A DNA stretch of 64,000 nucleotides from Burkholderiales bacterium (GTDB lineage: Bacteria; Pseudomonadota; Gammaproteobacteria; Burkholderiales; Sulfuriferulaceae). Positions within the stretch are counted from its first letter, which is position 1. Every line of letters starts with the position of its first letter. Below the pieces are notes generated by a model. It was not told where the DNA came from, did not search any database, and saw only the letters and a list, made by a program, of their open reading frames with translations. Positions 34,142 to 37,622 of this stretch are shown piece after piece. The position numbers were made by a program, and so were the translations under genes. Location of the stretch: assembly GCA_038217005.1 (NCBI GenBank), contig JBBQPT010000009.1, positions 839-64,838 on the forward strand, in the 5' to 3' direction.

Positions 34142-35659
34142 ATGTGCGGCATAATTGGCATCGTTTCTCATTCACCCGTCAATCAGATGCTCTATGATGG
34201 TTTGTTGGTTTTGCAACATCGTGGGCAAGATGCAGCGGGGATAGTGACCGCTGAGGGTAATGTGTTCCACATGCATAAAGCCAATGGCTTGGTGCGCGAC
34301 GTATTCCGCACTCGCGACATGCGTAATCTGCTGGGTAATTCCGGCATAGGCCACGTGCGCTATCCAACTGCAGGTAATGCCGCTTCTACCGCTGAAGCGC
34401 AGCCGTTCTATGTGAATTCACCTTATGGCATCGTATTGGCGCACAATGGCAATTTAACTAACACCGATCAACTTAAAGAAGACTTATTCCGTCTGGACTT
34501 GCGCCATGTCAATACCAGCTCGGATTCAGAAGTGTTGCTTAATGTACTTGCGCATGAGTTAGTGGAAGTCGGCAACACCCATCAGCTTAGTGTCGATCGT
34601 ATCTTCAAAGCGGTGAGTGGCGTGCATCGACGTTGCCGTGGTGCTTATGCAGTAGTGGCAATGATATCCGGGCATGGCTTGCTGGCATTCCGCGATCCGT
34701 ATGGCATCCGTCCATTGATTATTGGTAGCCGTCAGTCAGAACATGGCGTCGAGTACATGGTGGCATCGGAAAGCGTGGCGATAGATTCGCTGGATTTCAA
34801 AGTGCTGCGTGATGTTGCGCCAGGTGAGGCGATTTATATCGACGAAGCGGGACAGATGCACAGTCAGCAATGTTCGGATAATCCACAATATTTCCCATGT
34901 ATTTTTGAATACGTTTATCTGGCGCGTCCTGATTCAGTGATAGATGGTGTTTCCGTATACGAAACCAGACTGCGTATGGGCGAGCGATTAGCTGAAAAGA
35001 TCCGCCAGCAATGGTCGCACCTGCATATCGACGTAGTTATCCCGATCCCTGATACCAGTCGTCCGAGTGCGTTGCAGCTTGCCAATGCCCTCGGCTTGTC
35101 TTATCGTGAAGGTTTTATCAAGAACCGCTACATTGGCCGCACCTTTATTATGCCGGGGCAAGCCATGCGCAAAAAGTCTGTACGCCAGAAGCTCAATGCC
35201 ATCGGCATGGAATTCAAAGATAAAAACGTGCTGTTAGTCGATGACTCTATCGTGCGCGGCACCACCAGCCGTGAAATCGTGCAAATGGCGCGTGATGCGG
35301 GTGCGCGTCAGGTGTTCTTTGCTTCAGCCGCGCCACCTGTACGTTTCCCTAACGTCTATGGCATTGATATGCCCACGCGTCATGAGCTGTTGGCGACAGG
35401 ACGTACTGACGAGCAAATTGCACGTGAAATCGGTGCCGATGCACTGGTGTATCAGGATATAGATGCGCTGATCGAAGCTGTGCGTGAAATCAATCCTGCA
35501 TTAGAGCATTTTGATACATCGTGCTTTAACGGCAACTATGTGACAGGCGACATCACCCCAGAATATCTGGATCTCATTGAATCCATGCGCTGTGGCTCAG
35601 ATGGCAAAGCGAAATCATCTTCGTTGCAGCTGGATTTGAATCTGGCGCGTGGGACCTGA
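34142..35659 (+). CDS. purF: Amidophosphoribosyltransferase
   Basis: MCGI N-terminal nucleophile, [19 protein letters not shown] and [11 protein letters not shown]. Confidence 0.98.
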
Positions 35660-35664
35660 AACGG

Positions 35665-35693
35665 TTGACGATAAATTACACAGAGTTTAAGAT
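35665..35693 (+). promoter_or_regulatory. Sigma70 promoter for the metZ leader
   Basis: TTGACG (35665-70), 17-nt spacer, TAAGAT (35688-93). Predicted start site near 35700, at the 5' edge of the riboswitch. Confidence 0.75.
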
Positions 35694-35697
35694 GAAC

Positions 35698-35745
35698 CAT
35701 GCGCCGATTTCCAACTTGCGGGCGCTTAATAAATTCAGCTAAAAC
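35698..35745 (+). ncRNA. SAM-II (SAM_alpha-type) riboswitch aptamer
   Basis: GCGCC-GATTT-CCAAC-TTGC-G-GGCGC-TTAATAAAT-TC-AGCTAAAA matches the SAM-II pattern (P1 GCGCC/GGCGC, GAUUU, UUGC, AUAAAU, GCUAAA). It lies upstream of a methionine-synthesis gene. Confidence 0.88.
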
Positions 35746-35748
35746 CTC

Positions 35749-35783
35749 AACCCGTTTTAGCTATCCAGCAAAACGGGTTTTTT
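35749..35783 (+). terminator. Intrinsic terminator in the metZ leader (riboswitch expression platform)
   Basis: AACCCGTTTT-(A)GCT-ATCC-AGC-AAAACGGGTT stem followed by a T tract, 15 nt before the metZ ATG. Confidence 0.8.
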
Positions 35784-35797
35784 ATTAGGAGCAGTTC

Positions 35798-36976
35798 ATG
35801 CAAAACGAAGATTACGATATTGAAACTCTGGCAGTGCGCGCAGGAATTACGCGCAGCCAGTTTGGCGAGCACAGTGAAGCGCTGTATTTGACTTCCAGCT
35901 TTGTGTTTAACAATGCAGCAGAAGCCCAGGCGCGGTTTAAGGGTGAGCAGCCCGGCAATATTTATGCGCGCTTTACCAATCCCACCGTCACCATGTTTGA
36001 ACAGCGGTTGGCTGCACTAGAAGGTGCTGAGCGTTGCGTGGCAACGGCTTCAGGCATGTCTGCAATATTGGCAACGGTAATGGGTTTGCTCAAAGCCGGT
36101 GACCACATCATTGCTTCACGTTCTATTTTTGGTTCTACCGTGCAGCTGTTCAGCAATATTATCGGGCGCTTTGGTGTGGAAACGACTTATGTATCGCCGA
36201 CTGATATTAGCGAATGGCAAGCTGCGCTGCGCCCTAATACCAAGCTGTTTTTTGTGGAATCGCCATCTAATCCGTTGACTGAAGTCAGCGATATCGGCGC
36301 GTTGTCGGTATTGGCAAAACAGTCTGGCGTGGTGCTGGCGGTGGACAATTGTTTTTGCTCGCCTGCATTGCAACAGCCATTAAAGTTGGGCGCGGATATC
36401 GTTATTCATTCCGCGACTAAATATCTGGATGGGCAGGGTCGCGTGCTGGGCGGCGCGGTACTGGGCAGCAACCAGTTGATGGAAGGTGTATATGGTTTCT
36501 TGCGTACCGCAGGGCCGACCATGAGCGCGTTCAACGCGTGGGTGTTTCTCAAAGGCCTGGAGACGCTTAAGCTGCGGATGGACGCGCACTCCGCCGCTGC
36601 GCTGAGTTTGGCGACCTGGCTGGAAGCGCATCCGAATGTGGCGCGCGTATATTACCCGGGCTTGCCTTCCCACCCGCAACATGAAATAGCCATGCGCCAG
36701 CAGCGTACTGGTGGCGGTATAGTTGCATTTGAAGTCAAAGGCGGGCAGCCAGCAGCCTGGCAGGTGATAGATGCAACCAAGATGATTTCGATAACTGCTA
36801 ATTTAGGCGATACGAAAACGACCATTACCCATCCGACCACCACTACGCATAGTCGTATGACGCCCGAACAACGGGAGAATGCAGGTATCAATGATGGGCT
36901 GTTGCGTGTGGCTGTCGGTTTGGAATCGCTGCGCGACATACAAAATGATTTGGCGCGAGGTCTGGATGGGCTATAA
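35798..36976 (+). CDS. metZ: O-succinylhomoserine sulfhydrylase
   Basis: EHSEALYLTSSF, YARFTNPT and the PLP motif HSATKYLDGQGR; downstream of purF as in many proteobacteria. Confidence 0.95.
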   Translation: MQNEDYDIETLAVRAGITRSQFGEHSEALYLTSSFVFNNAAEAQARFKGEQPGNIYARFTNPTVTMFEQRLAALEGAERCVATASGMSAILATVMGLLKAGDHIIASRSIFGSTVQLFSNIIGRFGVETTYVSPTDISEWQAALRPNTKLFFVESPSNPLTEVSDIGALSVLAKQSGVVLAVDNCFCSPALQQPLKLGADIVIHSATKYLDGQGRVLGGAVLGSNQLMEGVYGFLRTAGPTMSAFNAWVFLKGLETLKLRMDAHSAAALSLATWLEAHPNVARVYYPGLPSHPQHEIAMRQQRTGGGIVAFEVKGGQPAAWQVIDATKMISITANLGDTKTTITHPTTTTHSRMTPEQRENAGINDGLLRVAVGLESLRDIQNDLARGLDGL

Positions 36977-37622
36977 GCTCATCATCGTCGGTGCGATGCT
37001 GTCTGTGCATGCATGGGCAGCGTCGATGACGGAGCTGAATTATCAGGACAGTGACGCAGGCACGCCCGCTTACCGCACGCGAATACTGGTGACACCTGAT
37101 TTTTTGCGTATGGATGCAGGGGTTGATAACGATAATTTCACCTTGCTCAATCGTGTAACAGGACTGCTCTACAATGTTAGCCGCGATGAACACCAGGCTT
37201 ATCGTTACGATACTCAGCAGGCTAAAATTGCACTGCCCAAACCATGGAAAATCACCCGGCACGTCACTCAAATCAATGCAAGCACGCGGCATTTTGACTG
37301 GGCTGTCAATGGTAAACCCTGCGGCCAAGTCACGGCCACCAGCAAACTGCAGCCTGACACTGCTGTAGCGCTACAGCAATACTGGCATGCCCTCGCCACG
37401 AGTCAGTGGCAAACCTGGCAGCGCACCCCCGCGGATATGCGTAACGCATGCGATTTGGCGCGTTATGTTGTTGCTATTCCTTTTGTATTTCAATATGGCT
37501 TGCCACTGAGCGATGAGACCAGCGACGGACGCAGCCGCAATTATCAGTCTGATAGTGTGGTTCCATTGCGTGCAGAGCTCTTTGTGCTCCCGCCTGATTA
37601 CCCTGTCGTCACCGCTCCATGA
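36966..37622 (+). CDS. Hypothetical exported protein
   Basis: ATG 36966 overlaps the end of metZ. Signal peptide MGYKLIIVGAMLSVHAWA|A; two Cys; loosely DUF4412-like beta-rich sequence. Confidence 0.65.
   Translation: MGYKLIIVGAMLSVHAWAASMTELNYQDSDAGTPAYRTRILVTPDFLRMDAGVDNDNFTLLNRVTGLLYNVSRDEHQAYRYDTQQAKIALPKPWKITRHVTQINASTRHFDWAVNGKPCGQVTATSKLQPDTAVALQQYWHALATSQWQTWQRTPADMRNACDLARYVVAIPFVFQYGLPLSDETSDGRSRNYQSDSVVPLRAELFVLPPDYPVVTAP

Follow-up and report, generated by a model that had tools for sequence, protein, structure and literature searches.

The purF-metZ spacer

The window analysed here, a stretch of 64,000 nt, carries purF (34142-35659) and, downstream of it, metZ (35798-36976), coding for O-succinylhomoserine sulfhydrylase (NF006003, 720 bits). 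The spacer between them is 138 nt long, and every element listed in a preliminary description of this DNA is present in it. A sigma-70-type promoter on the + strand, TTGACG-17-TAAGAT, lies at 35665-35693 (9 of 12 matches), its -35 box beginning 5 nt past the purF stop; the transcript is predicted to start at about 35699-35701, right at P1 of an aptamer that was also correctly placed. P1 (35701-35725, + strand) pairs GCGCC at 35701-05 with GGCGC at 35721-25 in 5 bp, encloses the loop GAUUUCCAACUUGCG and is seen in every fold computed. There follow the A-rich linker L3, UUAAUAAAUUC (35726-35736, + strand), with the motif uuAAuAAAU that is kept in all betaproteobacterial homologs, and the 3' tail AGCUAAAAC (35737-35745, + strand), whose GCUAAA is invariant across the family. 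The tail is the switching sequence, because it serves both as the 3' strand of P2b (equivalents of G42 C43 U44 A45-A48) and as the 5' arm of an antiterminator.

The antiterminator hairpin (35737-35762, + strand) has 9 bp, AGCUAAAAC/GUUUUAGCU, an 8-nt loop and an energy of -8.9 kcal/mol. As the preliminary description had it, AGCTAAAAC (35737-45) and GTTTTAGCT (35754-62) are exact reverse complements, and the terminator hairpin with its T tract is where it was said to be: an intrinsic terminator on the + strand (35749-35784), with a stem at 35749-35779 (10 + 3 bp, -15.6 kcal/mol) followed by UUUUUU (TTTTTT at 35779-84). Since the antiterminator 3' arm overlaps the terminator 5' arm at 35754-62, the two hairpins are mutually exclusive. 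The metZ Shine-Dalgarno sequence AGGAG (35787-91) and the ATG at 35798 (together 35787-35800, + strand) are sequestered by the terminator in neither case. The fold has a minimum free energy of -26.8 kcal/mol, moderately better than that of shuffled sequences (z = -2.65).

The statement that purF has no terminator of its own also stands: there is no other + strand terminator-like site in 35310-35749. At the other end of metZ, an ORF of 247 aa (36879-37622, + strand), unmatched in NCBIfam, shares about 100 nt with the 3' end of the gene; it is spurious or else truly begins further downstream.

Homology to SAM-II leaders

One way to classify such a leader is by the Rfam covariance model for SAM-II, SAM_alpha (RF00521), and by this measure the locus fails: it scores 13.6 bits (E 1.1, from a permissively filtered scan of 301 nt), where the gathering score is 36. 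Searched over the 2.48-Mb genome, the same model ranks the locus 4th of 10 chance-level matches of 11 to 15.5 bits, and no Rfam family reaches its gathering score anywhere in the 64-kb window. The permissive 301-nt scan also returned Trp_leader (16.7 bits), RybB (11.3 bits) and Bp2_287 (14.4 bits, minus strand), all sub-threshold; the Trp_leader and RybB matches are partial and come from the terminator hairpin, and the Bp2_287 match is on the antisense strand. The preliminary description had proposed that the absence of a covariance-model hit would refute it, and with RF00521 nothing above chance level was indeed found; but that test is too strict, because the Rfam threshold also misses 18 of 20 homologous betaproteobacterial leaders. 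These leaders score 25-41 bits on RF00521, and only two (among loci L010-L038) reach 36 or more. The SAM_alpha family is thus under-annotated in this clade.

A second approach starts from the relatives themselves. BLAST of the leader against 60 of them finds the aptamer part (35698-35743) in many families of the order, often in 2 or 3 copies per genome. The consensus of the homologs reads GCGCC-GAUUUGA..CAGCUUGCG-GGCGC-uuAAuAAAU.c-aGCUAAAGCG, then a terminator. A covariance model, R1, was built from 19 betaproteobacterial aptamers with the window's own sub-type left out; it scores 35697-35755 at 49.7 bits (E 1.7e-12), the next match within the window having 9.3 bits. In the whole 2.48-Mb genome the locus is the sole strong match to R1. 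On inspection by eye, the next two (17 and 15 bits) resemble coding sequence, and a BLAST match that might have been a second copy (G000:C3:50567) lies inside an ORF read as trpC; as these candidates all look like coding sequence, the element is taken to be present in a single copy. BLAST and R1 together point to homology by descent with accepted SAM-II leaders.

The element here stands upstream of a methionine-metabolism gene, metZ, and homologous leaders precede metZ, metX and metH in other Betaproteobacteria. In 48 of 80 named metZ loci (from Gallionellaceae, Sideroxydans, Thiobacillus, Methyloversatilis and others), the element lies ahead of the gene on the coding strand; further copies stand before ORFs whose translations appear to be those of metX and metH.

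A side observation concerns RF02424 (Bp2_Cand287_SIPHT, 'Burkholderia sRNA'), the sub-threshold matches of which (at most 37.5 bits) are always antisense to a SAM-II aptamer plus terminator: in the window at 35670-35782 (minus strand), at L025 1460-1585, and at L029, L030, L031, L023, L027 and L028. RF02424 may represent a SAM-II leader that was modelled in the wrong orientation.

Promoter, terminator and antiterminator as family traits

Taken alone, the promoter match is not significant, with 3 promoter-like sites in 2.5 kb against 2.7 expected. In 23 of 29 homologous leaders, which come from many families, a TTGAC-N16-19-TAnnnT motif ends 6-13 nt ahead of P1. Folding places a hairpin ending at a U-tract in all 29 aptamer-bearing homologs, and the stems covary.

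To look for the antiterminator, leaders were truncated just ahead of the terminator 3' arm and folded. At least four of the six GCUAAA bases pair downstream in 19 of 27 distinct leaders, against 3.3 expected when the downstream part is shuffled; the sequences being related, this contrast carries no formal probability, yet the lineages use different pairing partners. The terminator 5' arm has, within Sulfuriferula, UU as bases 8-9 in the type of leader found in the window (hereafter window type) and CC in the main type; the antiterminator partner in the tail is correspondingly AA or GG, and the terminator partner in the 3' arm A or G. Tail, 5' arm and 3' arm thus covary three ways. At this locus an intrinsic terminator precedes the ORF, and the antiterminator that excludes it is built on a strand of the aptamer.

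The computed energies describe how the two hairpins would compete. P1 alone has -9.2 kcal/mol, P1 with the antiterminator -18.9 and P1 with the terminator -24.8, the hairpins by themselves contributing -8.9 and -15.6 kcal/mol, respectively. Once the nascent RNA reaches about 35760, the antiterminator is its minimum-free-energy structure, and at about 35775 the balance tips to the terminator. With a gap of about 6 kcal/mol in favour of the terminator, anti-termination would have to be kinetic, and strand displacement could make the switch leaky. Main-type leaders have a similar balance, with terminators at about -16 kcal/mol and truncated-leader folds at about -19 to -21 kcal/mol.

A shortened P2 pseudoknot

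The preliminary description called this a complete transcriptional SAM-II switch. Homology, conservation and covariation support the core of that reading (a SAM-II-type aptamer with its own promoter, and a mutually exclusive antiterminator and terminator that make up an OFF switch for metZ); that the distal part of P2 is absent had been missed.

Residue roles can be mapped onto the numbering of the Sargasso Sea metX structure (PDB 2QWY) as given in PMC3303485. In that structure U21 and G22 sandwich the adenine of SAM, whose pairing partner is the unpaired U44; triples are made by U11 with U21-A45 and by U12 with A46-U20, and position 19 faces A47. The residues that contact SAM or form the triplex are U10-U12, U20, U21, G22, U44, A45 and A46 (PMC3303485). 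The window type retains the equivalents of U10-U12, U20, U21, G22, C23, G42, C43, U44 and A45-A47: GAUUU, CUUGC and GCUAAA occur in the right order, the U44 equivalent is unpaired, and all four core pairs (U20-A46, U21-A45, G22-C43 and C23-G42) can form.

Beyond this core the two types part. The loop is GAUUU-CCAA-CUUGCG in the window type versus GAUUU-GAAACAG-CUUGCG in the main type, so that it is 3 nt shorter; the tail is GCUAAA-AC versus GCUAAA-GCGGAAC. The distal P2 pairs 19-48, 18-49 and 16-50 are impossible in the window type (C19/A48, A18/C49 and C16/C50), and nothing replaces them. The extended P2 (the P2a side), which is the usual interface with the expression platform, is therefore missing. 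An unbiased duplex search found no loop-tail partner for the shortened loop better than -2.2 kcal/mol; for main-type leaders and most others the same search gave the canonical register, at -5.5 to -13 kcal/mol, with two leaders at -3.4 and -3.7. In 41 distinct betaproteobacterial leaders, CAGCUUGCG (CAGCUU) and GCUAAAG(C/A)G are nearly invariant; only the window-type sub-clade departs from them.

Two consequences follow from the loss of the distal pairs. With a loop-tail duplex of just -2.2 kcal/mol, affinity for SAM could be low or lost; and the antiterminator would compete directly with the strand of the ligand-binding core.

Selection on the variant

Twenty-seven Sulfuriferula species could be sorted by R1: nine carry the main type (77-78 bits), five the window type (47-51 bits; genomes G000, G009, G020, G021 and G026) and 13 none. 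A metagenome scan for the variant core returned only the contig already known as G009. The window-type form is derived and common to the five species.

Among these five, identity at 4-fold synonymous sites of metZ is 0.35-0.53, which is near saturation, apart from one close pair at 79%; the leader from P1 to the Shine-Dalgarno sequence is almost invariant. Outside the antiterminator, 32 of 36 aptamer positions do not vary at all, and the four varying columns are a P1 C to U that keeps a G-U pair, a loop C to U, and two L3 positions. In one of the five, G026 (locus L012), the element is kept before metZ despite a different upstream sequence that has neither the purF 3' end nor the promoter match. 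A nearly invariant aptamer at synonymous saturation, together with this retention, argues for selection on the aptamer fold itself and not on the terminator alone. The window-type form, to judge from these comparisons, is under strong purifying selection and is no relic.

In the element-less species, eight genomes have an identifiable metZ, which follows another gene. Of seven readable upstream regions (L063 and L065-L070, from G002, G005, G008, G010, G014, G017 and G023), five or six have metZ almost directly after that gene, with no leader; in G014 and G005 there is a spacer of about 130 nt before metZ. The preceding gene, ending in ..RTHLYRKLKQLGV.., looks from its C-terminus like a Fis-type helix-turn-helix regulator.

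Proposed mechanism and rival explanations

The locus is probably (at about 0.8) a SAM-II-derived transcriptional OFF riboswitch that responds to SAM and controls metZ; SAM binding, the direction of the switch and its kinetic control we infer. In this scheme, transcription would start near 35700 from the promoter at 35665-93, or arrive as read-through from purF, and P1 would be the first element to fold. When SAM is abundant, GCUAAA of the tail would dock on the loop strand CUUGC with L1 (GAUUU) in the groove, that is, as the P2b triplex of tail, loop strand and L1 that holds SAM in the solved SAM-II structure (PMC3303485); with the tail unavailable, the terminator at 35749-84 would form and polymerase would stop, 14 nt short of the metZ start codon. 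At low SAM, the tail AGCUAAAAC would remain free and pair with GUUUUAGCU as soon as the latter had been made; the antiterminator would then block the terminator 5' arm while polymerase passes the U-tract, and metZ would be transcribed.

Any read-through from accD-folC-dedD-cvpA-purF must cross the riboswitch, as there is no other terminator and the -35 box begins so soon after the purF stop. The earlier suggestion, that the hairpin may also act as a SAM-dependent end for transcripts of the purF operon, is compatible with the sequence; the consequence for purF expression would be small.

The shortened aptamer might have lost the ability to bind SAM, leaving the terminator and antiterminator as a SAM-independent attenuator or a switch for some other signal, such as a protein, another metabolite or transcription speed. 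The loss of the otherwise nearly invariant tail G48-C49-G50 and of loop G18, the weakness of the predicted loop-tail duplex (-2.2 kcal/mol) and the sub-threshold Rfam score would all be expected then; yet P1, L1 and L3, which lie outside the terminator and antiterminator, are almost invariant near synonymous saturation, every residue known to contact SAM is kept, and the regulated gene is still metZ. Loss of binding is accordingly considered unlikely. A second proposal takes the hairpin as the constitutive terminator of the accD-folC-dedD-cvpA-purF operon and its resemblance to SAM-II as fortuitous, which would suit a purF with no other terminator and an RF00521 score at chance level. Against it stands that metZ can be expressed by read-through only, because its start lies 14 nt past the U-tract and there is no room for a promoter of its own. 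The proposal is already contradicted by the clade-specific model (E about 1e-12), by conservation of the promoter before P1 and by G026, where the element precedes metZ in different surroundings, and is very improbable.

Scarcely credible, finally, is the idea that the locus is no riboswitch but works by leader-peptide attenuation or encodes an antisense small RNA of the kind of Rfam Bp2_287. The weak matches to Trp_leader (16.7 bits) and Bp2_287 (14.4 bits, minus strand) could be cited for it, as could a 16-codon ORF, MNHAPISNLRALNKFS (ATG 35692 to TAA 35742, + strand), that overlaps the aptamer and the -10 box. That ORF, however, has its ATG within the -10 box, ahead of where the transcript is predicted to begin, and has neither a Shine-Dalgarno sequence nor an internal Met codon, and was set aside as fortuitous; the Trp_leader match spans only the terminator hairpin; and Bp2_287 is far below its gathering score of 70 everywhere, its matches always antisense to SAM-II.

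Returning to the SAM-responsive switch, there is about an even chance that the window-type leader is a naturally minimised, working SAM-II, in which four Watson-Crick pairs around the ligand and the L1 triplex suffice and the 9-bp antiterminator competes directly with the strand that binds the ligand. If so, a transcriptional SAM-II could do without the distal P2 helix, and in the variant the SAM threshold may be shifted or switching faster.

Relation to known systems

The combination of promoter, aptamer, antiterminator and terminator has been in the literature since 2005-2007 and is no discovery, so that the novelty implied by the preliminary description falls away. Corbino et al. (2005) reported that SAM-II usually comes with -35 and -10 elements a few nt before P1 (PMC1273637), and Barrick and Breaker (2007) that terminators are its most frequent expression platform in alpha- and beta-Proteobacteria (PMC2258182); the terminator-coupled form is thus the commonest predicted one there (PMC2258182; PMC1273637), and a metZ example has been studied (PMC9373788). 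The remark that the best-studied SAM-II examples act on translation holds for the structural literature; in this clade, transcriptional SAM-II is the norm.

With the terminator type of RF00521 (the metA motif; PMC1273637) the locus shares P1, the GAUUU L1, the CUUGC/GCUAAA core of P2b and the unpaired U44 equivalent, as well as the A-rich L3, a promoter a few nt before P1, an intrinsic terminator between P2 and the ORF, and a methionine-pathway gene downstream. It differs in having no distal P2 (P2a side) that can form, in its 13.6 bits against the gathering score of 36, and in a tail that reads AAAAC where others have AAAGCG; the interface with the platform is the core strand itself.

Scheuer et al. 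(2022) studied the Sinorhizobium meliloti metZ SAM-II (the RZ sRNA), which has a terminator and yields a terminated RNA of about 100 nt (PMC9373788). The gene regulated is the same and so is the predicted logic, in which SAM leads to a Rho-independent terminator and a short leader RNA; the S. meliloti element differs in being alphaproteobacterial and canonical, with its terminated RNA seen on a Northern blot (PMC9373788), while the switch at the present locus is predicted from sequence.

The nearest relatives are the main-type betaproteobacterial metZ leaders of Sulfuriferula multivorans TTN (L075), Gallionellaceae, Sideroxydans and Thiobacillus. They share with the present locus homology over the whole leader, the promoter position, the terminator base ACCCG...CGGGU, the GCUAAA antiterminator and, within Sulfuriferula, the purF-leader-metZ synteny. 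In the main type, the loop ..GA..CAGCUUGCG and the tail GCUAAAGCGG allow three more P2 pairs than here, and the antiterminator is split by an internal loop into two short helices, in contrast to the unbroken 9-bp helix of the present locus. Public RNA runs for this organism and for cultured relatives consist of unitigs assembled from mixed communities, with neither direction nor true ends, and the conserved aptamer core draws in contigs from other organisms. For the L075 leader (499-614), run X41, of unspecified kind, includes a 117-nt unitig over this S. multivorans-type sequence at depth 133, versus 35 for metZ and 12 for purF. This could be abundant terminated leader RNA, although the core words are common to different organisms.

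The Sargasso Sea metX SAM-II (PDB 2QWY) has the same binding-core residues, and its tail likewise has an A run after U44, with an A19-A47 mismatch (PMC3303485, PMC5352136). It differs in being translational, with the Shine-Dalgarno sequence buried in P2a/P2b and no terminator, and in keeping U18-A48 and the P2a pairs.

Set against these systems, the locus is best described, from its sequence, as a lineage-specific, shortened-pseudoknot variant of the well-known terminator-coupled SAM-II. The shortened pseudoknot, which hides it from the standard Rfam model, is its sole unusual trait. For annotation, the analysis assigns a putative regulator to metZ in Sulfuriferula; it also shows that the Rfam SAM_alpha threshold misses most of the betaproteobacterial SAM-II leaders tested (18 of 20) and this variant entirely. 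Beyond that, the shortened pseudoknot offers a natural test of how much of P2 is needed to sense SAM and drive a terminator, a matter of modest interest for riboswitch structural biologists.

A tandem arrangement occurs in other families of the order (L026, L031 and L034): within about 20-60 nt downstream of a first aptamer and its terminator stands a second, SAM-II-like one, its loop being ..CGACAACUUGC.. and its tail GCUAAAGCG.
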